Source: Thermodesulfobacteriota bacterium
Lineage (GTDB): Bacteria; Desulfobacterota; Binatia; Bin18
Reading direction: 5' to 3'
Assembly (NCBI GenBank): GCA_964291405.2
Contig: OZ219926.1
Span: 2,720,001 to 2,784,000, forward strand
DNA: 64,000 nucleotides
Of this stretch, positions 40,777 through 55,808 are shown in pieces. Each line of letters begins with the position of its first letter. Position 1 is the stretch's first letter. The notes below the pieces were generated by a model that ran no database searches, was not told where the DNA came from, and saw only the letters and a program-made list of their open reading frames with translations. Position numbers and translations under genes: made by a program.

Positions 40777-42192
40777 CTACTCAACGGCCGGTTTGGTCGC
40801 TTGCCAGGGGCACATCTTCTCGAACGCCGCGGAGGCACGTAGCACCCCGGCATCGTCAAACCGCCGTCCCACAATTTGGAGTCCGACTGGCAAGCCTGCT
40901 TTTGTAAATCCACACGGAATGGACGCCGCCGGATTCCCGGTCAGATTGAAGGGAAACGTAAAGGTGAGCCACTCGTACGGGGAGAGCCGGGTGCCGTTTA
41001 CTGATTTGGCATTGTCGAGCCCGACCGCAAACGGCGGGCAGGGCAGGGTCGGGGTAAGCAGCAGGGTGTATTTCTCAAAAAATTTCTGGACCCCGGTATT
41101 CCAGTCCAGGCGCGCGAACCACGCGTCAATATAGTGGTTGGCTTTCCATTTATGCGTTTTCTCAATCAACTTCACCAGATTGGGATCAATATCCGACCGG
41201 CGCGTTTTGAGCGCTGGCCCCAGCCGGGCAGCAATCCCGCCACAAAACAGACCCTCCCAGGCCGGTTGCGGGTTTGGCCATTTGGGTTTGACGCTTTCGA
41301 CCCGACACCCCAGGTCCCTGAACCGCCGGGCCGCCTTGGCGCACAGGGCTTTGACCTCCGGGTCAAGCGCCTTGGTAGAGCCCAGATCATCGCACCATGC
41401 CACCCGCCAGCCTTCCATTGAGCCCTTGAGAGCTTTGACATAGTCGGTCGTGTCCGCCGGTAGAGAGTACTGGTCGTGCCCGTCCGGTCCTGCCGTGACG
41501 TTCAGCATGAGCGCGGCATCGGCCACCGTCCGCGTCATCGGCCCGACATGCGACAAACTCCAGGCTCCGCTCGGCGGATACACCGGAATCCGGCCAAAGG
41601 ACGGCTTGATCCCATATACCCCGCTGAACGACGAAGGGATACGGATTGAGCCGCCCCCATCCGTTCCTATGGCCAGAGGTCCCAGGCCGGCCGCGATCGC
41701 CGCTCCGGCTCCGCCACTTGAGCCGCCCGGTGTCAAGGCGAGATTCCACGGATTCCGGGTTGGCCCGAACAAGAGATTGTGCGTGACTCCCAGCCAGCCA
41801 AACGTTGGCGTATTTGTCTTGCCGAGCTGAATGCCCCCCGCCGCTTTCATGCGTGCCACCATGGGGGCATCTTCAGTCGGGACGTTGTCGGCGAACAGCG
41901 GTGTCCCAAACGTCGTGCGCACCCCTTTGGTTATCACCAGGTCCTTGGTTGAGAACGGAACGCCGTGGAGCGGACCAAGTGAAGCCGAGCGCTGCATCAG
42001 CATTTTCTCGGCTTTACGCGCGTCGCGCAGCGCGGCTTTGTCCGTCAGGGTGACAAAGGCGTTGAGCCGTGGGTTGAGTTGGTCAATGCGATCGAGTATC
42101 GCTCGCGTGACTTCGACCGGGGAGAGCTGTTTGCGCCGAATCGCTTTCGCCAGTTCGGTTGCGGACAGCCAGCAGATATCGTCCTTTGCCAT
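40777..42192 (-). CDS. Amidase signature family enzyme
   Basis: LHGVPFSTKD, GKTNTP, PGGSSGG, GTDGGGSIRIP, GLPVGLQIVG. Confidence 0.93.
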   Translation of the reverse strand: MAKDDICWLSATELAKAIRRKQLSPVEVTRAILDRIDQLNPRLNAFVTLTDKAALRDARKAEKMLMQRSASLGPLHGVPFSTKDLVITKGVRTTFGTPLFADNVPTEDAPMVARMKAAGGIQLGKTNTPTFGWLGVTHNLLFGPTRNPWNLALTPGGSSGGAGAAIAAGLGPLAIGTDGGGSIRIPSSFSGVYGIKPSFGRIPVYPPSGAWSLSHVGPMTRTVADAALMLNVTAGPDGHDQYSLPADTTDYVKALKGSMEGWRVAWCDDLGSTKALDPEVKALCAKAARRFRDLGCRVESVKPKWPNPQPAWEGLFCGGIAARLGPALKTRRSDIDPNLVKLIEKTHKWKANHYIDAWFARLDWNTGVQKFFEKYTLLLTPTLPCPPFAVGLDNAKSVNGTRLSPYEWLTFTFPFNLTGNPAASIPCGFTKAGLPVGLQIVGRRFDDAGVLRASAAFEKMCPWQATKPAVE

Positions 42193-42651
42193 GTTGTTCT
42201 TTCTGCTCACTTTTGTTAGCACTTCACCCTTTTCTAAAAGTGAGGGATTTCAGGGGCTTGGCGAGTTTATTGTGGTTTTTCTTCTTACCTCTCTCAGGCT
42301 TCTGACATATCCTTAATACTACCATTTCATTGTGACACAGGTTTTCTCCGTATTCAAAGGGAAACTCCCTCATAACTCCCCGCTCCCAGGTCCCCCCGCT
42401 GCCCGGAGGCGGCCGCCCCGACGGGCAAGCCACAGCCCGTTCAGAACGCTTGACCGACACGGTGTCTGGCGTTATCTATTGTACTTTTTCTGCGTAACTT
42501 ATTTATATTACACCACTTTTTACTCCTCATATTAGTAGCAAACCCCTCAAGACTAGGGGAACTAGCGGTGCATGACGGTAGCGGACCGTAGACGAGAGGA
42601 AGCCAGTATACCACCAGCAGTCGGTGCCGATACCGAGAGAGGACATACCAC

Positions 42652-43635
42652 GTGCCCCGCAACGACCAAGTCACTCGCCAGTGGTTCTTGATGCAGAAAT
42701 TGGAGCAGTCCCAAGGGGCGACCGTGCAGGAATTGGCCGCCTCCCTGCCCGAAGATTTTTCCTGTCACCCGCGCACCATTCGACGCGACCTCGAAGCCCT
42801 GGAGGCCGCGCATATTCCTCTCGTCACCGAACGCAGCAACGGGCAGACCCGCTGGCGGCTGATGGACGGCTATCGCAAAGTCCTTCCCCTGGCACTCTCG
42901 CCGACCGAACTCATGGCCCTGGTCTTCAGCCGGGATTTACTGCAACCCCTGGAAGGAACGGAACTCAAGGCGTCGCTCGATTCTGCGCTCAACAAGGCCG
43001 CAGCCGCGCTACCAGCAGAGGGCACACGCTATCTTGAGCAACTCCGAAGCCATTTTTCCGTCGGGCTGGGTGCCCACAAGACCTACCGTCAGCATAGACA
43101 GACCATAGACCACCTCCAGCGGGCCATTGCCCAGACGCGCACCGTACAAATGCGCTATTACACGGCCTCGCGCGACCGGACCGGCCGCCGCGAGGTGGAC
43201 CCCTATCACCTGTGGTACGCCGACGGCGGGCTGTATCTGATCGGCCACTGTCACCTGCGCCAGGAGGTGCGCATGTTTGCAGTGGACCGGATTCGTTCCC
43301 TGACCTTGACCAATCGTCCCTGCCAGATGCCGTTCGATTTCGACCTGGACGCTTATGTGAAGGACGCCTTGGTGGTCATGCGCGGAACACCGATTGAGGT
43401 CGAACTGTTGTTCGACAAACCCACCAGCGCCTGGGTGAAAGGCCGGCAGTGGCACCCGAGCCAGCAGACCACGGAACGGAAAGACGGACGCCTGGCCATG
43501 TCGATTCGCGCGGCAGATACGCGCGAGTTGGTTGGCTGGGTGTTGCACTTTGGTAGTGGGGTGCAGGTCATCAGCCCGGAATCCTTCCGAGACAAGGTCC
43601 GCGCAGAAGCCCAAAAAATTTGTGAACAGGAGTGA
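42652..43635 (+). CDS. HTH-WYL-WCX transcriptional regulator (PafB/PafC-like)
   Basis: RTIRRDLEAL HTH; REVDPYHL, LYLIGHC, RMFAVDRI; WVLHFG..VQVISPESFR. Confidence 0.92.
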   Translation: MPRNDQVTRQWFLMQKLEQSQGATVQELAASLPEDFSCHPRTIRRDLEALEAAHIPLVTERSNGQTRWRLMDGYRKVLPLALSPTELMALVFSRDLLQPLEGTELKASLDSALNKAAAALPAEGTRYLEQLRSHFSVGLGAHKTYRQHRQTIDHLQRAIAQTRTVQMRYYTASRDRTGRREVDPYHLWYADGGLYLIGHCHLRQEVRMFAVDRIRSLTLTNRPCQMPFDFDLDAYVKDALVVMRGTPIEVELLFDKPTSAWVKGRQWHPSQQTTERKDGRLAMSIRAADTRELVGWVLHFGSGVQVISPESFRDKVRAEAQKICEQE

Positions 43636-43664
43636 CCCCGGATGTCACACCGGTGTGCTACAGG
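43632..43664 (+). promoter_or_regulatory. Candidate WYL operator/promoter
   Basis: GTGAC-N7-GTCAC overlapping the WYL stop codon; TGTCAC-N10-TACAGG. Confidence 0.5.
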
Positions 43665-43701
43665 CAATGCAAATGAACTGACCCAGCGACGGCCCCTGCT
43701 T

Positions 43702-43738
43702 CCCTCTCCCCTGGAGGGAGAGGGCTAGGGTGAGGGGG
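43702..43738. repeat. REP-type palindrome (CCCTCTCCC-N5-GGGAGAGGG family)
   Basis: CCCTCTCCCCTGGAGGGAGAGGGCTAGGGTGAGGGGG. Confidence 0.7.
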
Positions 43739-43764
43739 AAGAGATGGAGAAAGGAACATATCGC

Positions 43765-43890
43765 ATGCCCTCGATTGATTTAGCGTTTCGCCTGACCGGA
43801 TCAGCCCTTCCGGTTGACCACGGCTATGCCTTGTATGCCGCGCTGAGCCGGATTCTGCTCTCAACCTTCAACAAAATATCTGCCTCTTAA
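43765..43890 (+). pseudogene. Truncated cas6 of MYXAN/Cmx6 type (N-terminal ~31 aa only)
   Basis: MPSIDLAFRLTGSALPVDHGYALYAALSRIL then unrelated tail and TAA; AGGA upstream; too short for the ORF track. Confidence 0.8.
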
Positions 43891-43908
43891 TATAGAAGAA
43901 CCGTTTTT

Positions 43909-44889
43909 ATGGATGATTTCTCTCCGTCTGATCTCAAGACCATTCTCCACTCAAAACGCGCCAATATGTACTACCTTCAACACTGTCGGGTATTGGTCAA
44001 TGGTGGGCGAGTGGAATATGTGACCGATCAGGGTAAACAGTCTCTCTACTGGAATATCCCTATCGCTAATACAACCTCTTTGCTTTTGGGCACGGGCACC
44101 TCAATAACACAAGCAGCAATGCGCGAATTAGCCAAGGCTGGTGTCTTGGTCGGGTTTTGCGGCGGCGGCGGCTCGCCTCTATTTGCGGCAAATGAAGTTG
44201 AAGTGGATGTGTCTTGGCTGAGTCCACAGAGCGAATATCGGCCTACGGAGTATTTACAGCACTGGGTCAGTTTCTGGTTTGACGAAGACAGCCGCGTTGC
44301 CGCTGCAAAAGCGTTCCAACACGTGCGTTTTGAACAGATTAGAAAACATTGGCTGGATTCGACAATGCAACGGGAAAGCGCGTTTGATCTCAGCGCCGCT
44401 GCTCTCACCACTATTCTTGATACGACACAAGAATCATTGGAATTGTGTCAAACAACCAATGCCATTCTTTCGCTAGAAGCCCAGATTACCAAGCATCTAT
44501 ACAGACTTGCAGTCAACGCTGTTGGCTATGGAGAGTTTGTCCGTGCGAAACGGGGCTCAGGCTCCGACTTGGCGAACCGATATCTTGACCACGGGAATTA
44601 TCTCGCTTACGGACTGGCGGCCACTGCGGCCTGGGTGCTTGGCCTGCCTCATGGTCTCGCGGTACTGCACGGAAAGACCAGGCGGGGAGGGCTGGTCTTT
44701 GATATCGCCGACCTAGTGAAAGACGCTCTGATCCTCCCGCAAGCCTTCATTTCGGCAATGGCCGGTCAGGATGAACAAGAATTTCGTCAAGCCTGCCTCC
44801 ACCGATTCAATCAAGCCGAAGCCCTGGACACCATGATAGACACCATCAAGTCTGTTGCGATTGAGTTCAGCAAAGTCCCACGACCATGA
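43909..44889 (+). CDS. cas1: Type I-F Cas1
   Basis: ILHSKRANMYYL, YWNIPIANT, YLDHGNYLAYG, HGKTRRGGLVFD. Confidence 0.97.
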   Translation: MDDFSPSDLKTILHSKRANMYYLQHCRVLVNGGRVEYVTDQGKQSLYWNIPIANTTSLLLGTGTSITQAAMRELAKAGVLVGFCGGGGSPLFAANEVEVDVSWLSPQSEYRPTEYLQHWVSFWFDEDSRVAAAKAFQHVRFEQIRKHWLDSTMQRESAFDLSAAALTTILDTTQESLELCQTTNAILSLEAQITKHLYRLAVNAVGYGEFVRAKRGSGSDLANRYLDHGNYLAYGLAATAAWVLGLPHGLAVLHGKTRRGGLVFDIADLVKDALILPQAFISAMAGQDEQEFRQACLHRFNQAEALDTMIDTIKSVAIEFSKVPRP

Positions 44890-47800
44890 ATATCTTGCTT
44901 ATCTCTCAGTGCAATAAAAGAGCCCTGGTTGAAACTAGGCGCGTTCTGGATCAATTTGCAGAACGCAAAGGTGAGCGTACCTGGCAAACAGCAATCACAC
45001 TTCAAGGTTTGCAGACACTCCGCAAGATGCTGAAAAAATCAGCGCGGAGAAATACCGCCGTGGCCTGTCACAGAATCGGCGGCAAGAATTACAGCGAATT
45101 GCTGTGGGTGGTCGGCAACGCCAACAAGTTCAATATCGAAGGCACGATCCCGACCAATTTCACCCGGCGCGACGTGTTGAAGGCCGACGACGAGAACCAA
45201 TGGTACACGGCAACGATTATTGCCCTTCTCTCGGCACTAGCAGCCTTGTTTCACGACTTTGGGAAAGCCAATGTCCTGTTCCAGGACAAGCTGAAAAAAG
45301 GAAAGCGTGCCACGGAGCCATATCGCCACGAATGGGTCAGTCTCCGCATGTTTGAGGCGTTTGTTCGCGGCGAGCCAGACGAACAATGGCTGCAACGGTT
45401 AGCCAACGTTTCGAGCAGTGATGAACAGAGCCTCTTAGACCGCCTCAAAGCAATACAGGACCACCCCGATACAGTAATAGATTCGCCGTTCAAGTCTCTG
45501 AAACCCCTCGCGCAAGCGGTCGGCTGGCTTATCCTGACGCACCACAAACTTCCACAGACTCCGAAAGAGGAAAAAGGACGACTCAAGCACATTGCCTATT
45601 TCCTCAGCCGCCACCTTCAACCCGATTGGAACTCGTCTCGGGAAAGATGGGTGAAGGGCGAACGGAAAGAGTGGGCCGGCGCAGACGAAGAAGTCGGTCA
45701 GGTTTGGACTTTCCCAGACGGAACACCGTTAAGAAGTAGTACTTGGTGCAAGAAAGCCCGGAACATCGCCCAACGATTGGCGCAACCCGGCATTTTTGAT
45801 TCGTCTGATTCGTCCTGGGACAACGATTTTGTTATGCACGTTGCCCGCATGACCCTCATGCTGGCGGACCACTATTACTCGTCGCAGGACCGCGATCCAA
45901 GGTACGGGGATGATGGTTACAAGGTCTACGCCAACACTGACAAGGACGGCAATCGGAAACAACAGCTTGATGAGCACCTTGTCGGTGTCTACAAGCACAG
46001 CTTACGGATTATGAGAATCCTCCCTGGGCTGAGAAACACCTTACCGGCACTCGGACGACATGCGGCCTTCAAGAAACGGACACGAGACAGCCGGTTTCTC
46101 TGGCAGAATAAAGCCTACGAATTGGCATGTTCTCTGAAGGACAAGGCACAAGAGGGTGGTTTTTTCGGGGTAAACATGGCGTCAACCGGGTGTGGCAAAA
46201 CGTTTGCCAACGCACGCATCATGTATGCCTTGGCTGACGAGAAACGTGGCTGCCGGTTCAGTGTTGCCTTGGGTTTACGAACCCTGACACTACAGACCGG
46301 CGATGCTTTCCGGCAAAGAATGCTGCTAGACGAAGATGATATGGCAGTGATGATTGGCTCTGCCGCGGTCCGCAAGCTCCATGAAGATCAAGTGGCGGAA
46401 AAGGAAAAAGAGGAACAGGAAAAACCGGACAGGTTCACCGGATCGGAATCCGCCGAGGCGTTAGATGACGACTATTACATCATCTATGACGAGGCGCTTG
46501 CAGATACCGCGCTCAAGCGTTGGCTCAAAGCCTCGCCAAAGGCAGACCGTATGGTCGGTGCGCCTATCTTGGTCAGCACGATTGACCATCTTATGCCAGC
46601 AACGGAAGGCACGCGCGGCGGCCGGCAGATTGCTCCCATGCTCCGCCTGCTGACCTCAGACTTGGTGATAGACGAGCCGGACGATTTCAGTCTTGATGAC
46701 CTCAAGGCACTGACCCGTTTGGTCCATTGGGCCGGAATGCTGGGCAGCAAGGTCGTGCTCTCTTCCGCAACGCTTTCTCCTGCTCTCCTGACCGGACTCT
46801 TCCAGGCATATCATATTGGACGGACCGTCTATAACAAAAATTGTGGAAACCCGAACCAGGAAACTATCTACTGCGCGTGGTTTGACGAGAAAAAGGCAGA
46901 GCCCGCAGCCATTGCCAATGTCGAAGAGTTTCGTGCCAATGTGGAGAAGTTTCGTCAACAGCACAGTACTTTTACGAAGGATCGAGCGGCAGAGCTCGCA
47001 ACTGGACATCCGAAACGAAAAGCAGAAATCGTGTCGTTGACCGGCTCTGTACTGACGCCGCAGGACGCTGTGAATGTAATGAGTGAAAAGATTCTCGAAG
47101 GCATACACCGACTGCACAGCGACCACAGCCAAGAAGACCCAAAGACCAAGAAAAGAATCAGTGTTGGTCTGGTCCGCATGGCGAACATCAACCCGCTTGT
47201 ATCCGTCGCACAGCGTTTGCTGGAAAAGGAGCCCCCGGCTGATACAACTGTCCACTATTGCGTGTACCATAGTCGGTTTCCCTTGATCGTGCGATCCGAA
47301 ATCGAGCGCATTCTTGATACGGTCCTGACTCGAAAGGACGGCAAAGAACTCTGGCAGTCCTCCGTTATCCAAGAAGCAATCGCACGCGCCGCTACCACAA
47401 ATCATATCTTTGTCGTGATAGCCTCTCCCGTAGCCGAGATCGGACGCGATCATGACTATGATTGGGCAGTTGTCGAACCGAGTTCTATGCGGTCTCTCGT
47501 CCAAATAGGCGGACGGGTCTTACGTCACAGGGACCGGCTACCAGAAACGGTGAACATGCTCTTGTTGAGTAAAAACTATAGGGGTTTGACAGGCAAACGG
47601 CCCGCGTTCTGTCGCCCCGGTTTCGAGTCCGACGACAGGCGACTTACCCGCTATGACTTGGCCGACCTTCTCTGCGAGGACCAATACACCGTGATTGATT
47701 CCCGACCCTGCATCGTCCCGAGAGAGAATTTCGACCCAACACAAAACCTGGCGGACATGGAACATCGGGAAACCGATCTTGCCTTCTCCAGCCCTGACCA

Positions 47801-48206
47801 AAGCGACCCATATGCCTCGCAGTGGATCAAATCACGCGCCACGCTGACCGGGGAGCTTCAGAAGCGGACGCCGTTTCGGAAGTCTGCCAAAGAAGACGAC
47901 TATTTCCTGCACCTAGGAGAAGGCGATGAGGAACCCACAGTCAGAAAATGGCACGGAGACGGACCGTACAAAGAAGCCAAAGACTGTGATGAGATTAACC
48001 TGACCGAACTGTCTATAGATTCTGGCAACAGAATATGGGGGCACGTTGCTTACTCGGACGCACTGAACCGGCTGGCACAGAAGGAAGGCAAGGACGTAGA
48101 AGAACTTGGCAAGACCTACGGGACGTTTTCCTTGCGGCCTGCACGGATTGGCTGGCCTTGGCAATATACCCCAAAAATCGGTTTTTATGAGCCGATGAAA
48201 AAATGA
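44886..48206 (+). CDS. cas3: Type I-F Cas2-Cas3 fusion helicase/nuclease
   Basis: N-terminal Cas2 (ETRRVLDQFAER), FHDFGKA HD motif, MASTGCGKT, IDEPDD, GRDHDYDW. Confidence 0.96.
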   Translation: MNILLISQCNKRALVETRRVLDQFAERKGERTWQTAITLQGLQTLRKMLKKSARRNTAVACHRIGGKNYSELLWVVGNANKFNIEGTIPTNFTRRDVLKADDENQWYTATIIALLSALAALFHDFGKANVLFQDKLKKGKRATEPYRHEWVSLRMFEAFVRGEPDEQWLQRLANVSSSDEQSLLDRLKAIQDHPDTVIDSPFKSLKPLAQAVGWLILTHHKLPQTPKEEKGRLKHIAYFLSRHLQPDWNSSRERWVKGERKEWAGADEEVGQVWTFPDGTPLRSSTWCKKARNIAQRLAQPGIFDSSDSSWDNDFVMHVARMTLMLADHYYSSQDRDPRYGDDGYKVYANTDKDGNRKQQLDEHLVGVYKHSLRIMRILPGLRNTLPALGRHAAFKKRTRDSRFLWQNKAYELACSLKDKAQEGGFFGVNMASTGCGKTFANARIMYALADEKRGCRFSVALGLRTLTLQTGDAFRQRMLLDEDDMAVMIGSAAVRKLHEDQVAEKEKEEQEKPDRFTGSESAEALDDDYYIIYDEALADTALKRWLKASPKADRMVGAPILVSTIDHLMPATEGTRGGRQIAPMLRLLTSDLVIDEPDDFSLDDLKALTRLVHWAGMLGSKVVLSSATLSPALLTGLFQAYHIGRTVYNKNCGNPNQETIYCAWFDEKKAEPAAIANVEEFRANVEKFRQQHSTFTKDRAAELATGHPKRKAEIVSLTGSVLTPQDAVNVMSEKILEGIHRLHSDHSQEDPKTKKRISVGLVRMANINPLVSVAQRLLEKEPPADTTVHYCVYHSRFPLIVRSEIERILDTVLTRKDGKELWQSSVIQEAIARAATTNHIFVVIASPVAEIGRDHDYDWAVVEPSSMRSLVQIGGRVLRHRDRLPETVNMLLLSKNYRGLTGKRPAFCRPGFESDDRRLTRYDLADLLCEDQYTVIDSRPCIVPRENFDPTQNLADMEHRETDLAFSSPDQSDPYASQWIKSRATLTGELQKRTPFRKSAKEDDYFLHLGEGDEEPTVRKWHGDGPYKEAKDCDEINLTELSIDSGNRIWGHVAYSDALNRLAQKEGKDVEELGKTYGTFSLRPARIGWPWQYTPKIGFYEPMKK

Positions 48207-48258
48207 CGGTTTGCTTCGTATCGGCCAGTAAGATGGCAGGAACGAAGCTAACGGACCA

Positions 48259-48286
48259 ATTCACTACCGCACGGGTAGCTAAGAAA
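48259..48286 (+). CRISPR. Solitary degenerate I-F repeat between cas2-3 and cas8f
   Basis: ATTCACTACCGCACGGGTAGCTAAGAAA, 23/28 identical to the array repeat with stem pairing preserved. Confidence 0.88.
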
Positions 48287-48324
48287 TATCTATCGATATT
48301 TATACTTTTAGAGGAGATTTCGTG

Positions 48325-49602
48325 ATGCCAAACACACAACAGAACGGGCTTACTGCTCGAATCCTGGAATACGTCCAGCAACGAGAAGCCGAGGAACTGA
48401 AGAACGTCAAGGACGATGCCAAACGACTGAAAATCGCGGCCAAGTACGAACCTCAAACCTGGCTGAGCGAGAAAGCCCGTACAGCAAAAAGCGTCGCTGC
48501 CTCCTCTTGGCAGTCATTCTCCGATGTCACGCATGTGGCGAAGTTTGTCCACGGCGGCGCAGAGGCGAGTAGCGTTTCCACAACGGGAGCGAAAGAAACT
48601 GACGGCTATATTTCCACGCCCAGTGTTGCAATGCTCACCTACGATACCGCCTGCAATGCTGCTGCCCTCCCTATTAAGCCTTTCTTGCTTCTCGAACATG
48701 ACGGTCGGACACTGATTGATGCCTTGCGACAAGGGGACGTGTCTCCGCTCTTGGAGATTGCTCCAGATGAAACAACGGCGCAGGAGTGGGCAAGCGCGTT
48801 TATCTCGGCTTTTGAGGCAAAGGAACCCGACGCACACATGATCAAACAGTGCTATTGGCCGGTCCCCAGCGATGGGTATCATCTCCAGATTCCGCTTTAC
48901 CCTACGTCATTCGCGCAGGCGATTTATGCGTCTATTCAACGCGCAAAATTCTCCGGCGAGGCCAAAGCAACCCGGAAAGCCCGCAGCGATGAACAGGAAT
49001 CCGACCGAGAAGATGTCCGCTATCCAAACCTTGCCATTCAGAGCTTTGGCGGCTCTAACAAACAGAACATCAGCCAACTGAACAGCCCGCGTGGTGGCAA
49101 AGCCTACTTGTTCTCATGCGCGCCACCAACCTGGAAACGACGGAACGCTCCGCCTCTGCACATCTCCTCCGTTTTTCCCTCTTGCTTTGAACGCCAAGTC
49201 CGGTCCCGACATATCAAGCCGCTACAGGAGTTCCTGTACAGCGTTCGAGACAAGGACACTAACGCCAGAATCAGAAAACACCGCGAGGGACGGGTGGATG
49301 CCCTGATAGATGTCATTCTGAGTCAGGCGGCTGACATTCAACAGATGCAACCGGGATGGAGCGCTGACCCTGACTGCCGGTTGCCGCTTGCGGAGCAGTA
49401 TTGGTTAGACCCTGAAAGAGCGGAGACGGATGAGGGTTTTCGGTCCGAACGAGACGCGGCTGACTGGCAAACCGAGGTCGCCAACACCTTTGCTATCTGG
49501 CTCAGTCGCAAACTGGAGCGTAACGGGCTTGCTTTCGGTGCCGATGAACAACATGCACTACGCAGCGATTGGCGTAATCGCATGAGGGAGGGGATTGTAT
49601 GA
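48325..49602 (+). CDS. csy1: Type I-F Cas8f (Csy1)
   Basis: THVAKFVH, NAAAL, KQCYWP, FGGSNKQNISQLNSPRGG, PPTW; alternative GTG at 48322. Confidence 0.92.
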   Translation: MPNTQQNGLTARILEYVQQREAEELKNVKDDAKRLKIAAKYEPQTWLSEKARTAKSVAASSWQSFSDVTHVAKFVHGGAEASSVSTTGAKETDGYISTPSVAMLTYDTACNAAALPIKPFLLLEHDGRTLIDALRQGDVSPLLEIAPDETTAQEWASAFISAFEAKEPDAHMIKQCYWPVPSDGYHLQIPLYPTSFAQAIYASIQRAKFSGEAKATRKARSDEQESDREDVRYPNLAIQSFGGSNKQNISQLNSPRGGKAYLFSCAPPTWKRRNAPPLHISSVFPSCFERQVRSRHIKPLQEFLYSVRDKDTNARIRKHREGRVDALIDVILSQAADIQQMQPGWSADPDCRLPLAEQYWLDPERAETDEGFRSERDAADWQTEVANTFAIWLSRKLERNGLAFGADEQHALRSDWRNRMREGIV

Positions 49603-50531
49603 TGGACCATGATTTTGTTGTTGTTTTGAGGCATCTGGAAGTCCACGGGGCCAACGCCATTACTGGCGCGACCTATGGGTTTCCCGCAATAACGCATTTC
49701 CTGGGCCACGCGCACGCCTTGCAACGCAAGCTGTCGGAAGAGTTTGCTCTGACCTTTGACGGCTGCGGGGTTGTTTGTCACCGGCATCATGTCCACGCGC
49801 ACAGACCTCCTGGCGGCCTTGGCTTCACCGATTTCGGTTTCGCTCTGAGCCGCAATCCTCTTGATAAAAAGGGCCAGTCACCGTCGTTTGTCGAAGAGGG
49901 CAAGATGAATATGGAGGTGACGCTGCTCATAGCCGTAACGGAAGGAAACCAACCAATCGGTCCGGTAGAGCAGGAGAAACTAAAAAAAGATTTGTTGAAC
50001 CAGTCAACCCGACAACGCTTGGCCGGTGGAGTTATTACCAACACGCCGGAAATTGAAATCATCCAGAGCGAGGCTTTTGAAGAGGGCCGGAAGAAAATCC
50101 TACGAGACCTCCTGCCGGGATTTGCGTTAGTGAGTCGGCACGATTTGCTGCTGGCCGAGCAGGACCGACAACGCAAGGCTGGCGTTCAAGACCCGGAACT
50201 CGCCGCCTGGATGTCGTTTTCGACGATACGGTACGCCGCCGATACAAACCAAACACAGAACGGCAAAACTCCGTGGCTGTTGGTGGAAAAACCGGCGACC
50301 GGGTGGATCACGCCTCTTGCCGTAGGCTATCGGCGCATCTCCCCACTGTACGGCCCTGGAAAGGTCAAGAATGTCCGCGACCCGACTGTACCGGCCTGTT
50401 TTGTGGAAAACCTGTATTCCCTCGGGCAGTGGATCAGTCCGCACAGAATCACAGACACGGACCATTTGTTCTGGCAGCAGGAATACGACGGTACAGGGCG
50501 GTATCTCTGCCGCAATTCGTATGAACCATAA
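49599..50531 (+). CDS. csy2: Type I-F Cas5f (Csy2)
   Basis: [40 protein letters not shown]. Confidence 0.93.
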
Positions 50532-50619
50532 AGAGGGAGATGGTGATGTAGACATAGAAGGTTCGTGCGGAAAGAGGGCCGATTTCACAAACCGAAAGTA
50601 CAAAGAAAGGACCATCACT

Positions 50620-51642
50620 ATGACAACGCAGGTAAAAACAGCATCAGTCCTGGCGTTCGAGCGGAAACTGGCGAACTCCGACGGCCTGATGTACTCAGGC
50701 AAATGGGAGAATCGAGACAATGCGGAATCCTGGTCGCCACTGACGGTCCACGAGAAAGCAGTACGGGGTACTATCTCAAACCGCCCGAAGACCAAAGGCG
50801 ATTCAGACCCTTTGAAACTGAACGAGAAAATCGAGAACCCGAATCCCCAGACGGTCGATGTGGCCATGCTGCCGCACGATCACGACACGGTGATACTCGC
50901 GTTTACGCTTCGAGTGCTCTCAGACCTGGATGTCCCATCTGCGTGTAATGACGCGGACTACCAAGAGGCGTTGGGGACAACGATCAATACCTATATCGCC
51001 AAGCACGGTTTTGCCGAATTGTCTCAGCGCTATGCCACGAATATAGCCAATGGGCGCTTCCTGTGGCGGAATCGTGTCGGCGCTGAAACCGTTACGGTAC
51101 GTGTGACCCGGTATCAGGGGCAGGAAGTCGTAGCCAGATGGGACTTTGAGAGCGGCCGTATATCCTTGCGGGATTTCGGTACTACGGACGTGGACGTGTC
51201 TGCACTCGCAGCCGCTATTGAAGCCGGTCTGAAAGGGGAGGCGTTTACGTTTCTCAAGATAGAAGGCTTTGCCCGTCTCGGCGAGGGACAGGAGGTGTTT
51301 CCCTCTCAGGAACTCATTTTAGACCGAGACAATGCCGGGAAGAGCAAAACGCTCTATGAAATTGGGGGTGTGGCGGGATTGCATTCTCAAAAAATCGGCA
51401 ACGCGCTGAGAACAATAGACACCTGGTATCCCGAAGCAGACCAATTTGGCCCCATATCGGTTGAACCGTTTGGCTCCGTCACCAATCGTGGCAAGGCATA
51501 CCGCCAGCCCAAAGACAAGCTGGATTTCTATACCCTCCTCGATAATTGGGTCTTAAAAGGAAAGACCCCCGAAGTGGAACAGCAACATTACGTTATGGCC
51601 GTGTTGGTTCGGGGCGGTGTTTTTGGAGAAAAGTCAGAGTGA
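50620..51642 (+). CDS. csy3: Type I-F Cas7f (Csy3)
   Basis: [57 protein letters not shown]. Confidence 0.96.
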
Positions 51643-51651
51643 GGTAGGAGC

Positions 51652-52203
51652 ATGGACCATTACGTTGATATCCAGGTGCTTCCCGACCCGGAGTTTCTGG
51701 AGACCACGCTCATGAATGAACTGTTCTCCAAATTGCACCGGGCGCTGGGGAAACACGGGCAGGGCAAAATAGGAGTGAGTTTTCCCAAGCACGGCAAAAC
51801 CCTTGGACCGCGAATTCGTCTACATGGCAGCAAAGGGGCGCTTGAGGAATTCATGCAAACGCAGTGGATAGCGGGCATGACGGATTATTGTCGTGTCAGC
51901 GCTGTTTGCCCTGTCCCCCCTCAGACTTCATTCTGTACGGTCAGGCGAGTCCAAGCGAAGAGTGCATACAACAAACGGAACCGCTCGGTGGCGAAGGGCT
52001 GGTTGGATGAATCTGAAGCGCAGAAGCGTATTCCCGATTCTCAACAGAGAATGCTTGATCTGCCATACGCTCAACTCCGCAGTTTATCGAATGGAAATAT
52101 GATGCGCGTTTATATTGAGCATAGTAAGCCGATCCAACAATCCGTCGCAGGGTCATTTTCCGCCTATGGTCTCAGCAGCACTGCTACCGTCCCCTGGTTT
52201 TGA
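51652..52203 (+). CDS. cas6f: Type I-F Cas6f (Csy4) endoribonuclease
   Basis: MDHYVDI..PDPEF, KLHRAL, GVSFP, FSAYGLS..ATVPWF. Confidence 0.96.
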   Translation: MDHYVDIQVLPDPEFLETTLMNELFSKLHRALGKHGQGKIGVSFPKHGKTLGPRIRLHGSKGALEEFMQTQWIAGMTDYCRVSAVCPVPPQTSFCTVRRVQAKSAYNKRNRSVAKGWLDESEAQKRIPDSQQRMLDLPYAQLRSLSNGNMMRVYIEHSKPIQQSVAGSFSAYGLSSTATVPWF

Positions 52204-52332
52204 CCCTTTTTTCCTGGTTATCCATAACCCTTTGATTTACTTGTATATTTTTTAGGGGTTCGTATTAAGGTAAAGTCGTCACGTTTTACCCGAACTCCTT
52301 GAGAATCAAAGGCTTACACATCTGTGTCTTCA
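52204..52332 (+). promoter_or_regulatory. AT-rich CRISPR leader with two IHF-consensus sites
   Basis: WATCAANNNNTTR matches at 52304-52316 (+) and 52225-52237 (-). Confidence 0.8.
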
Positions 52333-53861
52333 GTTCACTGCCGTACAGGCAGCTAAGAAATACACGCTTGATCTCTTTGCCGGTGATTCTGCGTTCACTG
52401 CCGTACAGGCAGCTAAGAAAAGCTAGAGCTAGACGTACAACTGTTGAACCCCGTTCACTGCCGTACAGGCAGCTAAGAAAACCCAGATATGCCGGGCTGT
52501 GGGGTGTGCTGGGTTCACTGCCGTACAGGCAGCTAAGAAAACCCTGGATTCCGTAGCGGCGGGAGACATGGTGTTCACTGCCGTACAGGCAGCTAAGAAA
52601 AGTTGCCTGGCATTTTTGCCGGGGCAGACTATGTTCACTGCCGTACAGGCAGCTAAGAAAACCGTGGAGTGCCGCGCCGTGACCCTGACCGTGTTCACTG
52701 CCGTACAGGCAGCTAAGAAAGCCATATGGTAACCCAGAAGCTGGCCGATGCCGTTCACTGCCGTACAGGCAGCTAAGAAAAGCTTGATCCTCACCGTTCC
52801 CCCTGTCTTAACGTTCACTGCCGTACAGGCAGCTAAGAAAAAATCGTCGGGGACGTAGCGCCTGGACCAAGTGTTCACTGCCGTACAGGCAGCTAAGAAA
52901 TGAAAGCTGCTCAACTCCTGAACCTCCCGACCGTTCACTGCCGTACAGGCAGCTAAGAAATATCGTTGATTGGTGATTCAATGGTCGATTTTGTTCACTG
53001 CCGTACAGGCAGCTAAGAAAAAGCGGAATTCCCAGATGGCCGAGGCGATACGGGTTCACTGCCGTACAGGCAGCTAAGAAAGCTCAGCCTAGAGGAGGAA
53101 GAGCCGATGAAAGGTTCACTGCCGTACAGGCAGCTAAGAAAACCAGCGGCTGACGAAACCCGAACTGCTGGATGTTCACTGCCGTACAGGCAGCTAAGAA
53201 ATTCGCGAAGTCATGTCGAACGACCTGGAGGGCGTTCACTGCCGTACAGGCAGCTAAGAAATATTGGGGGTCGCCATACTTCTATTTATGTTCGTTCACT
53301 GCCGTACAGGCAGCTAAGAAAACCGGGCTTGTCGTGCAGAACGAGGCCGGGACGTTCACTGCCGTACAGGCAGCTAAGAAATCCTCTGCTGTTGGGCATC
53401 CACTATGGATATTGTTCACTGCCGTACAGGCAGCTAAGAAAGTCTGCCTCTGATTACCCGCATTCGGCACTCAGTTCACTGCCGTACAGGCAGCTAAGAA
53501 AAACAAAAGCGAGCAAGACGACACGATGCACACGTTCACTGCCGTACAGGCAGCTAAGAAATATCGACTGGCGCGGCGGGTCAACCAGCTCGTGTTCACT
53601 GCCGTACAGGCAGCTAAGAAAAAGAGCATCAAGTCGGTCCGCTATCCAGTCGCGTTCACTGCCGTACAGGCAGCTAAGAAATTGATGTCGCCGAAGACCG
53701 TAGAGTACTGTCCGTTCACTGCCGTACAGGCAGCTAAGAAAAACGCGACTACGCCCGCAGCGAGCACGGCAAGGTTCACTGCCGTACAGGCAGCTAAGAA
53801 AAGCGAAAGCAGGTGGTTGAGCGCTGTATTGAAGTTCACTGCCGTACAGGCAGCTAAGAAA
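52333..53861 (+). CRISPR. Type I-F CRISPR array: 26 identical 28-bp repeats, 25 spacers (24 x 32 bp, 1 x 33 bp)
   Basis: GTTCACTGCCGTACAGGCAGCTAAGAAA at 60-bp period. Confidence 0.99.
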
Positions 53862-53905
53862 CTGGAAAATCAAGGACTTATCCAAGAAACCCTGGTGCCC
53901 GGTTT

Positions 53906-53984
53906 GTCACCCCTGTGAAAACAGGGACAGGAATCCAGGCTATCCGCCTACGTCCTCTGGATGCCGGATCACGTCCGACATGAC
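53906..53984 (+). repeat. REP/BIME-like composite palindrome (GTCA...GAATCCAG/CTGGAT...TGAC family)
   Basis: Inverted homolog of 55491-55586. Confidence 0.7.
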
Positions 53985-54038
53985 GAGAGCGGAGCGGCAG
54001 GGCGACAGCTTGGCGTGAAATGCTCTTATTGAGCGAAA

Positions 54039-54075
54039 GAAGCACCGGCCTTAACGAGCCGGTGAGGACTGAAAC
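54039..54075 (+). CRISPR. Orphan 37-bp CRISPR-like repeat of a non-I-F family
   Basis: GAAGCACCGGCCTTAACGAGCCGGTGAGGACTGAAAC: CACCGGC/GCCGGTG hairpin and ...TGAAAC end; single copy. Confidence 0.65.
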
Positions 54076-54139
54076 GCCAAATCAAAAGCCCGTTGCTCTT
54101 CGCCTTGACGAAGGTTCAGGAATGAGAAAAAACTAGACC

Positions 54140-54433
54140 ATGACCGAGTTTGAGACAGCGACGATTGCTTTCCAGAACGCTTCCCTGTGGGCAGCCTCTA
54201 TTCAGGCCGGGATAGCGGGCCTGGTAGGACTGGTGCAATGCGCCTTGATTTTTTACGGCTTAAAGCTGATGCAGCGGAGCAATACCGACCGACAACGCCA
54301 AATGGACCTCGCCGAGAAGCGGCATGAGGAAAGCCTGTCGGCCTTACAGACCCAGACGGGCCTTGCCGAGAAGCGGCATGAGGAAAGCCTGCTCACATTA
54401 CGGACACTGATTGAACGGACCGCACCTCGGTGA
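54140..54433 (+). CDS. Small hypothetical membrane protein with internal 18-aa-period duplication
   Basis: One hydrophobic segment; LAEKRHEESL twice (27 identical bp at 54311 and 54365). Confidence 0.6.
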   Translation: MTEFETATIAFQNASLWAASIQAGIAGLVGLVQCALIFYGLKLMQRSNTDRQRQMDLAEKRHEESLSALQTQTGLAEKRHEESLLTLRTLIERTAPR

Positions 54434-54571
54434 CGCGCCCCTCCAAAAAAAGGAACGTCACGAAATGTGCCTAGGCCCCCATCCGACCTTGTCACTATCT
54501 GGGCTGAATGGTAGGGTTCCCCTCGATTTTACGGCTCATCCCTCGACTGGAACATATTCAGGAGTACATAC

Positions 54572-55450: not shown

Positions 55451-55490
55451 GGCGTTTTCGGGTGGTCTCTCGCCGTTCTCTTGCGTTTTC

Positions 55491-55586
55491 GTCATGCCGG
55501 ACGTGATCCGGCATCCAGTCCTCCGACTTCGCCTTGCTACGCTCAGGACGAACAGGGGGCTGGATTCCTGCCTTCGCAGGAATGAC
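55491..55586 (-). repeat. REP/BIME-like composite palindrome
   Basis: GTCATGCCGGACGTGATCCGGCATCCAG...CTGGATTCCTGCCTTCGCAGGAATGAC. Confidence 0.75.
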
Positions 55587-55808
55587 GGGTGGCCACACAG
55601 AAGCGTCGTTTGCTCTGGTCAGGAGCGTTGAGACAGCCGGCCCTACTGCTCCCGGCCCGTGGTGTAAAACTCGTCGTTGGGTCGTATCGTCAGATGAGCC
55701 ATGCGAGGGGACATCCCAGGGCTCGCCAAAAAATCTTGGCTTTCGCAATGGAGCCAGCTAGGCTAGGGGCCTGCTTGCGATCTGTTGTGGGACAAAAGGA
55801 GGGCCATT

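Follow-up and report, generated by a model that had tools for sequence, protein, structure and literature searches.

Replacement of entire cas loci by recombination between their flanks has been proposed for Escherichia and Salmonella, at hotspots associated with CRISPR (Touchon and Rocha 2010, PMC2886076). In the portions of that study available to us, arrays are described as outliving cas genes and as possible integration hotspots, and the data could not separate replacement from loss followed by regain. Exchange of cassettes at hotspots has long been proposed from presence/absence patterns of this kind; at the locus described here, one exchange left a base-exact scar. The locus lies in a 64,000-nt stretch of DNA, hereafter the window (contig OZ219926.1, positions 2,720,001 to 2,784,000, assembly GCA_964291405.2), from a Thermodesulfobacteriota bacterium of the class Binatia. 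In the window, a type I-F1 CRISPR-Cas cassette is joined to the first 31 codons of a cas6 gene of another subtype, I-MYXAN, behind a gene for a WYL-domain regulator, and is followed by a single repeat assigned to a third subtype, I-C. The explanation that we favor, with a probability of roughly 0.8, is that the I-F cassette replaced an I-MYXAN system within a WYL-headed locus and that the resulting composite was later relocated. The likeness to Escherichia and Salmonella, as far as the available portions of that study describe them, lies in the exchange of cas loci at hotspots and in arrays that outlast cas genes. The differences are that the Binatia genus exchanges three subtypes (I-C, I-MYXAN, and I-F) at four or more syntenic sites and that, here, a base-exact scar inside a cas gene is accompanied by a relic repeat of a third subtype. 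The scar narrows the choice between replacement and loss followed by regain without settling it.

Throughout, G000 denotes the genome carrying the window, G001 to G027 denote 27 congeners, L numbers denote fetched loci, and X3 denotes an unrelated public sequencing run. Just before the I-F cas1 gene (cas1f), a 41-codon open reading frame (ORF) translates to MPSIDLAFRLTGSALPVDHGYALYAALSRIL (residues 1 to 31) followed by LSTFNKISAS. The first-pass annotation, made from the sequence alone, had taken the first ~31 residues for the N terminus of a MYXAN/Cmx6-type Cas6 and had suggested a search with Cas6 MYXAN hidden Markov models (HMMs). That search identified a match over residues 1 to 31, which align with positions 1 to 31 of 197 in the TIGR02807 (cas6_cmx6) profile (E = 2.9e-8, 33.9 bits) and also match Pfam PF09559 (32.0 bits, above the gathering score of 26.7). 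The TIGR02807 cutoff of 98.85 bits applies to whole proteins, and a fragment necessarily falls below it; compared with a full-length Cmx6, which would cover the 197 positions at more than 98.85 bits, the stump is a fragment of a member rather than a member. Intact Cmx6 proteins of congeners score 202 to 227 bits, and the stump is 74 to 97% identical to the Cas6 N termini at all eight cmx6 loci fetched from congeners. Matches to the cmx6 profile are present in 11 of 61 genomes of the family and class, G000 included (nine above the cutoff), and, within the genus, in 8 of the 27 congeners. No other cmx6 match was detected in the G000 genome, where tblastn likewise found no other I-MYXAN or I-C cas gene.

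The abrupt break into AT-rich DNA upstream of cas1, also noted at first pass, proved to be exact. In an alignment of nine loci, the seven with a full-length cas6 frame, among them G022 with a TGA further downstream, read on as cas6 past ...CGGATTCTGC; at that point, G000 and G017 both change to an identical AT-rich sequence from upstream of cas1f, so that the break lies at 43858/43859 of the window. Codons 1 to 31 (to 43857/43858) are those of an I-MYXAN Cas6, codons 32 to 41 and the stop codon are read from I-F-derived DNA, and the native cas6 ribosome-binding region and start are retained in front of the stump. Because the base-exact junction is common to G000 and G017, the swap, judged from this alignment, is real and happened once.

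The proposed order of the block is an intact WYL gene; a spacer with a ribosome-binding site (RBS) and 31 cmx6 codons; the I-F1 cassette; an element resembling repetitive extragenic palindromes (REPs); and an orphan 37-nt repeat (37-mer). Its parts and the adjoining site are as follows, in window coordinates, with the strand where one applies.

42194-42651: left-end DNA of the composite, low GC, 458 nt; homology to congeners stops at 42193 (amidase ATG)
42652-43635, plus strand: intact gene for a regulator with helix-turn-helix (HTH), WYL, and WCX domains, 327 amino acids; identified by Pfam domains, ortholog of WYL genes that precede I-MYXAN operons
43632-43657: two overlapping palindromes across the WYL stop codon, GTGAC-N7-GTCAC and CACACCGGTGTG; sequence inspection
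43702-43739: REP-like short palindromic dispersed repeat in the WYL-cas6 spacer; many copies of 96 to 100% identity in congeners
43765-43890, plus strand: cas6/cmx6 stump ORF, 41 codons and stop; profile matches and nine-locus alignment
43859-43908, plus strand: AT-rich leftover of the I-F cas1 upstream region, ~50 nt; same junction in G017, compared with G006 and G022
43909-44889, plus strand: cas1f; TIGR03637, 512.5 bits (cutoff 150)
44886-48206, plus strand: cas2-3f fusion; TIGR02562, 1219 bits, profile positions 1 to 1110 of 1110; Cas2 domain PF21384
48259-48286, plus strand: degenerate I-F repeat between cas2-3 and csy1; CRISPR-DR4 match and fold
48322-49602, plus strand: csy1 (cas8f); TIGR02564, 334.9 bits
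49599-50531, plus strand: csy2 (cas5f); TIGR02565, 269.9 bits
50620-51642, plus strand: csy3 (cas7f), start set at the ATG at 50620; TIGR02566, 429 bits, from residue 89 of a longer ORF
51652-52203, plus strand: csy4 (cas6f); TIGR02563, 182.6 bits
52204-52332: I-F CRISPR leader
52333-53861, plus strand: I-F CRISPR array, 26 identical 28-nt repeats and 25 spacers of 32 to 33 nt
53906-54026: dispersed element between array and 37-mer, similar to REPs or miniature inverted-repeat transposable elements (MITEs); dozens of copies per congener
54039-54075, plus strand: solo 37-mer, assigned to the I-C repeat family, at the right end of the composite
54100-54480, plus strand: resident DNA of the insertion site, outside the CRISPR block; remnant in G018, homology of other congeners resuming at 54450-54486

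GC content is ~0.60 to 0.65 in the flanks, compared with ~0.49 to 0.58 across roughly 43800-54400.

The probable progenitor of the left part of the block is represented among the congeners. At the amino acid level, the WYL gene is 92% identical to its counterparts immediately before cmx6 in G018 and in G007; for G019, the value is 75%. This bears out, apart from the repeat, the earlier expectation that relatives carry a MYXAN-type operon downstream of the WYL ortholog. Such an ortholog lies directly upstream at five of the eight cmx6 loci: G018, G007, and G019 have an intact gene and G017 and G022 a truncated one. None was found within the 20 kb fetched at the other three. For example, the G018 locus (L014) consists of cmx6, cas3, cas8a1/cmx1, cas7/devR, cas5/cmx5, cas4-cas1 (MYXAN), and cas2, followed by an array with 36-nt repeats.

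A second chromosomal site links this operon to the composite. The flanks leuS/ORF201 (an ORF of 201 amino acids) and rpsT are common to G013, G022, and G017. Between them, G013 carries a type I-C system with six 37-mers; G022 carries a decaying WYL-I-MYXAN locus with three 36-nt repeats and one 37-mer; and G017 carries a fusion of a truncated WYL gene with the cas6 stump, followed by the I-F cassette, its array, a REP element, and the first ~14 nt of the 37-mer. The hotspot is pristine and unoccupied in G001, G006, and G021. The right end, REP plus 37-mer, is also common to G000 and G017 (82% identity over 53951-54052), which argues for a single origin of the whole composite. In G000 itself, the hotspot (C3:1040226-1041459, L134, outside the window) contains REPs, a Phd-like antitoxin gene, and a truncated PIN gene, with no CRISPR, as well as a ~57-nt duplicate of the 3' end of the 201-amino-acid ORF, a direct-repeat pattern typical of integrated islands. 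The G004 hotspot is structured like that of G000, and in G017 the truncated 37-mer is followed by the same PIN fragment and duplication.

Other sites with common flanks were found to be occupied by different subtypes. I-MYXAN systems in G018 and G019 correspond to I-F systems, with neither stump nor WYL gene, in G022 and G006; I-MYXAN systems in G027 and G007 correspond to I-C systems in G006 and G019; and the I-MYXAN system of G013 corresponds, in G002, to an I-C system followed by a solo 36-nt repeat. By these comparisons, the genus has four sites with common flanks between which the occupant alternates among I-C, I-MYXAN, and I-F.

Under the favored explanation, a WYL-I-MYXAN locus would have kept its DNA up to cas6 codon 31, and the I-F cassette would have replaced all that followed, through the last of the 36-nt repeats of the I-MYXAN array, either by one recombination or by deletion and then insertion. 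The replaced locus would already have borne a terminal I-C repeat, the relic of an older array. The swap probably took place in the leuS/ORF201-rpsT hotspot, and the finished composite would later have reached its present place, between an amidase gene and a hydrolase gene, by acquisition from an unsampled relative or by intragenomic movement. We infer the order of these events, the donor, and the mechanism behind the illegitimate joins, as well as all that is said below on regulation.

The identity of the 37-mer is central to this history. Separated from the final I-F repeat by 177 nt, it forms a hairpin of 7 bp (-13.5 kcal/mol, z = -3.83), aligns over its entire length with Rfam CRISPR-DR9 (29.3 bits against a gathering score of 45, E = 0.0036), and differs from the common form of the repeat at 2 of 37 positions. 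The 37-mer is present in 19 of the 27 congeners and in none of 27 genomes from nine other genera of the family. Arrays built from it contain 11 copies in G002, six in G013, and three each in G019 and G007, and G006 has 147 matches genome-wide, nearly all in one array behind its I-C operon. In G002, G006, and G013, the array lies directly downstream of a type I-C operon, which in G002 encodes, according to HMM matches, Cas3, Cas5c, Cas8c, Cas7c, Cas4, Cas1c, and Cas2; the operons of G006 and G013 are 81 to 83% identical to it at the DNA level. Judged from these operon contexts, the 37-mer is the repeat family of the type I-C systems of the genus. Cleavage of type I-C repeats by Cas5c leaves an 11-nt 5' handle.

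The first-pass annotation had read the 37-mer both as the array repeat of the displaced system and as a leftover of the far end of the older locus; the former reading failed and the latter stood. Arrays located right after cas2 of I-MYXAN operons use a 36-nt repeat (GTGCTCAACGCCTTACGGCATC...), in 3 to 70 copies and on the strand opposite to the operon, at six of the seven loci scanned, the seventh of which runs off its contig, and the metagenome loci L145 and L195 (WYL, cmx6, cas4-cas1) have the same 36-nt repeat family. At I-MYXAN loci, the 37-mer occurs only as a single copy and only at two of eight: on the operon strand in both cases, it lies 10 nt beyond the array in G022 and 39 nt beyond it in G016, where a degenerate second copy comes after it. 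Because of this position, and because terminal copies ending in GGAAC are common to G013 and G022 at the same site, the 37-mer of the window would be the relic of a still older I-C array. For annotation, the warning is that a solo repeat beside an array need not belong to the neighboring or preceding cas genes.

A relic need not be inert, and the 37-mer could instead have been kept for a function, either as a regulatory RNA resembling CRISPR RNA (crRNA) or as a recombination or docking site in cassette exchange. In many congeners, such repeats are conserved as solo copies, 1 to 5 per genome, and G016 shows compensatory changes in the stem; seven congeners have two-copy mini-arrays immediately in front of a conserved gene; the window copy occupies the extreme right end of the relocated block; and standalone regulatory repeats are known (PMC10120712, in the portion available). 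Nevertheless, a retained function is rather unlikely, given that G000 lacks any I-C cas gene whose product could process the 37-mer or bind it, that neither a second repeat nor a target was found adjacent to it, that its 3' two-thirds are lost in G017, and that empty target sites lack a 37-mer as a possible homology arm. A role as a terminator was also considered and rejected, as no T run follows the 37-mer.

At its present site, the composite is delimited by comparison with congeners. In all five that were aligned, homology ends at the amidase start codon and resumes only at the far side of the block, and G018 retains a 78-nt remnant of 54100-54176 at the amidase-hydrolase site. These limits place the block at 42194 to ~54099 (11.9 kb) and leave 24 nt between the 37-mer and the right edge; it is highly probable that this interval is a single composite CRISPR block. 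In 21 congeners, both flanks lie on a single contig; the amidase-hydrolase gap of these 21 measures 94 to 3733 nt and holds no CRISPR locus in any. The first-pass annotation had placed the swap at the amidase site itself and had proposed synteny of the amidase and WYL genes in sister genomes as a check; with the site CRISPR-free in 21 of 21 (at the sequence level, 5 of 5), the composite is an insertion there, and the swap in place is not borne out. Among 80 scanned metagenome loci with WYL relatives (46 to 92% identity), none has the amidase or the hydrolase; in the closest, L190 and L206 (92% over residues 131 to 326), a decayed WYL gene is followed only by REP elements.

Insertion exactly at the amidase ATG (42176-42215) has removed a strong RBS and the upstream region present in all five aligned congeners, and amidase expression may be impaired or rewired.

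The genome is derived from a metagenome, and the junction or the placement could in principle be an assembly chimera, or the Cmx6 match a product of chance. The REP/MITE-like families at 43702-43739, 53906-54026, and ~55451-55620 have dozens of copies per genus genome and very high depth in public runs; mapping showed a depth spike on the REP at 43702-43739 and loose ends at 43700-43702, 43736-43741, and 53906. In the run that holds the zero-difference contigs named below, one contig, with 30 nt on its shorter side, joins 42193 to 54481, so that the sample also has the empty-site form. An artefact is nonetheless very improbable: G017 has the same junction; zero-difference contigs cover 42164-42663, 43829-52359 (8531 nt), and 53832-54174 (343 nt, spanning the right end); and the profile E value and the identities to congener Cas6 N termini given above speak against a chance match.

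Several observations weigh against the explanation by replacement and later relocation. No relic of the 36-nt repeat is left in the block, and the 458-nt left end matches nothing in the 27 congeners. The contigs at the two left junctions (42164-42663 and 43829-52359) extend only 30 nt to the left of them, one short of what was counted as bridging, and a scan of 42150-44000 found no sigma-70-like promoter site. Identity between the I-F cassettes of G000 and G017 is uneven (Cas1, 94%; Csy4, 82%; Csy3, 79%; Cas2-3, 67%; Csy2, 64%; Csy1, 54%), and the G000 WYL protein is only 72% identical (over 168 amino acids) to the truncated copy of G017 despite the common junction. The uneven divergence makes it necessary to assume either that recombination took place within the composite at a later time or that G017 has decayed; as a pattern of protein identities, it points to later recombination or to fast evolution of the effector genes. 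Finally, one X3 contig joins the end of the 37-mer (54075) to the start of the hydrolase gene (54570) with ~117 other letters between them, and a second X3 contig follows the stump to 43858 and then departs. These contigs hint at a relative with the 37-mer at this site but without the 97-amino-acid ORF that follows the block in the window, and they suggest that this very site may be occupied by a CRISPR locus in an unsampled relative; such an occupant would favor a swap in place.

In its strict version, the in-place alternative posits an ancestral WYL-cas6-array locus at the amidase-hydrolase site, with the 37-mer as its own terminal I-MYXAN repeat and the I-F cassette inserted there. The stump and the orthologous WYL gene are real, and the X3 contigs hint at a 37-mer beside the hydrolase gene and at cas6 continuing past 43858 in an unsampled organism. 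Against this version stand the 36-nt repeat of I-MYXAN arrays (six of seven loci, plus L145 and L195), the association of 37-mer arrays with I-C operons, the CRISPR-free site in all 21 congeners, and the position of the same junction in G017 at the leuS-rpsT hotspot. Taken together, these points make the strict version unlikely.

The I-F1 cassette itself is, judged by its sequence, complete and apparently functional. The six genes, cas1f, cas2-3f, and csy1 to csy4, form one operon, and all score far above the NCBIfam curated cutoffs; the array repeat is a 28-nt hairpin ending in CUAAGAAA that matches Rfam CRISPR-DR4 (47.5 bits, gathering score 35). None of the 25 spacers matched the organism's own genome or any of the fetched loci with which they were compared, and anti-cas spacers as the driver of the swap were discarded as a candidate on that result. 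Csy3 was found in 5 of the 28 genomes of the genus, a patchy distribution that agrees with the earlier claim that the I-F system is foreign to the locus. The nearest Cas1f sequences, at 94% and 91% identity, come from records that bear the title Candidatus Binatia bacterium, followed at 75 to 77% by Pseudomonadota and Geobacter-like records. In a Cas1f tree of 81 rows, picked by similarity to the query and without the G022 row (best alignment shorter than 250 amino acids), the window and the two Candidatus Binatia rows form one group among those phyla, with a support of 99 in the Shimodaira-Hasegawa-like approximate likelihood ratio test (SH-aLRT). Identity among Csy1 relatives is graded, from 80, 65, and 61% through ~25 sequences at 54 to 59%, and then falls to 44%. 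This graded, lineage-specific Csy1 group argues for a cassette that would be foreign in origin but long resident in the lineage and exchanged within it. The first-pass annotation had instead suggested an import from Gammaproteobacteria; a fresh import from that source was rejected, with Cas1f identity outside the lineage at no more than 75 to 77% and the next Csy1 match at 44%, below the 54 to 80% of the lineage-specific group.

BrxR and CapW are WYL-domain regulators of defense systems. Within CRISPR-Cas, sll7009 represses a type I-D system, with the WYL domain predicted to sense a ligand (PMC4012209), and HTH or WYL genes beside cas1 of I-F1 systems are common elsewhere (PMC12887000), as far as the available portions of these sources go. 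The window gene resembles such regulators in its HTH-WYL-WCX architecture (PF13280 WYL, 80.7 bits; PF25583 WCX, 65.1 bits; HTH_11, 24.8 bits, borderline to the gathering score of 25) and in its position, co-oriented with and immediately upstream of the cas operon. It differs in that orthology traces it to genes preceding another subtype, I-MYXAN, and in that the sister locus in G017 lacks the WYL and WCX half. Pairwise dN/dS ratios of 0.06 to 0.07 indicate purifying selection and equal the value between two I-MYXAN-linked orthologs. Decay of the WYL gene after loss of the I-MYXAN system was considered and is not backed by these ratios, which, being pairwise, cannot isolate the recent branch. 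Of the two palindromes across the WYL stop codon, the first (43632-43648) is kept in five of nine aligned loci and in metagenome locus L206, and the pair is a candidate operator or RNA hairpin.

Compared with the cas1 upstream regions in G006 and G022, only ~50 nt of DNA upstream of cas1f arrived with the I-F cassette, and the scan of 42150-44000 found no terminator-like site. Given this short upstream segment and the lack of a terminator-like site between the WYL gene and cas1, we lean slightly toward the view that the older WYL/cas6 promoter region drives the I-F operon and that the stump serves as a short leader ORF; as the scan found no promoter site, we infer this transcription rather than read it from a promoter. 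Actual control of the I-F operon by the WYL protein is a tentative proposal. In its favor are the intact WYL gene under purifying selection, the conserved palindrome at its stop codon, and the retained cas6 ribosome-binding region and start; against it count the deletion of half of the regulator in G017 and the I-F cassettes at another site, in G022 and G006, that have no WYL gene at all, and also to be weighed is how often WYL or HTH genes accompany I-F cas1 elsewhere. If the window WYL protein does regulate the I-F system, this regulation would be second-hand. More broadly, the locus might be viewed as a mobile socket, in which the WYL gene with its operator and promoter region and the cas6 start form one arm and the relic repeat the other, with I-C, I-MYXAN, and I-F cassettes of related genomes exchanged between the arms by recombination and the I-F system switched by a ligand-sensing WYL protein whose evolution was tied to another subtype, a generalization that we consider doubtful. 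The uncultured lineage is, in any case, a natural case for the study of immune-cassette swapping and of the inheritance of a regulator by an incoming system.

A further repeat-like element lies within the I-F operon. The degenerate repeat at 48259-48286 differs from the array repeat by five mismatches, a compensatory pair among them, keeps the 5-bp stem of the latter, and scores 32.2 bits against CRISPR-DR4, under the gathering score of 35. It lies 35 nt before the csy1 start, and its G017 counterpart lies 9 nt before the csy1 start of that genome; no counterpart was found before csy1 in G006 and G022. By its sequence and position, it may serve Csy4 as a site of processing or act on the csy genes as a crRNA-like regulator. 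Standalone repeat-like elements, including some between cas3 and cas8f of I-F1 systems, have been described (PMC10120712; bioRxiv 10.64898/2026.06.02.729485), as has CreTA of the Pseudomonas aeruginosa I-F system (bioRxiv 10.64898/2026.06.02.729485). As far as these sources are available, the element resembles the crRNA-like elements of I-F1 systems in its typical place, between cas3 and cas8f, and differs in the single repeat-like copy found, rather than two flanking a spacer with partial complementarity to a nearby target that has a protospacer-adjacent motif (PAM): inspection by eye of 48207-48346 revealed no second copy. The 37-mer does not fit the autoregulatory model set out in the same portions, because the cas genes of its subtype are absent from G000.

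Open-access term searches returned no paper on Binatia CRISPR loci beyond incidental mentions and no description of a cas6 stump fused to an I-F cassette, which is not proof of absence. Apparently new here are the base-exact intragenic scar in two species; the three-layer record of an I-C repeat, an I-MYXAN stump with its regulator, and an I-F cassette; and, in a poorly studied lineage, the probable secondary relocation of a whole composite and the recurrent alternation of subtypes at several sites.

Remains of several subtypes were also observed elsewhere in G000, outside the window. At C3:2935024-2935420 (L047, 10025-10421), four 36-nt repeats of the I-MYXAN type, one 37-mer, and one solo I-F repeat lie together, and the surroundings contain no cas genes. 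In G004, the homologous site (L046) has I-E-type repeats as well, and there a WYL gene cut after ~53 codons is joined within ~10 nt to a 37-mer. By its repeat content, this site is a multisubtype repeat "graveyard." At C3:4804865-4805807, 16 I-E-type 28-nt repeats were found, with a Cas3-like match ~8 kb away; on the strength of this combination, a second CRISPR-Cas system, of type I-E, is probably present in G000.

Immediately beyond the block, the 97-amino-acid ORF (54140-54433) is hydrophobic in its N-terminal part and contains a tandem duplication of 54 nt (54298-54405); it belongs to a small multicopy family of the genus. Finally, the two-copy 37-mer mini-arrays of seven congeners (L022, L023, L024, L026, L030, L034, and L037) all directly precede a conserved gene whose product starts with MGKYMFHA.... 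Promoter-like hexamers, TTGA...TAyAAT, occur within the "spacer" of at least two of these mini-arrays, which would place a CRISPR-type hairpin in the 5' leader of that gene.

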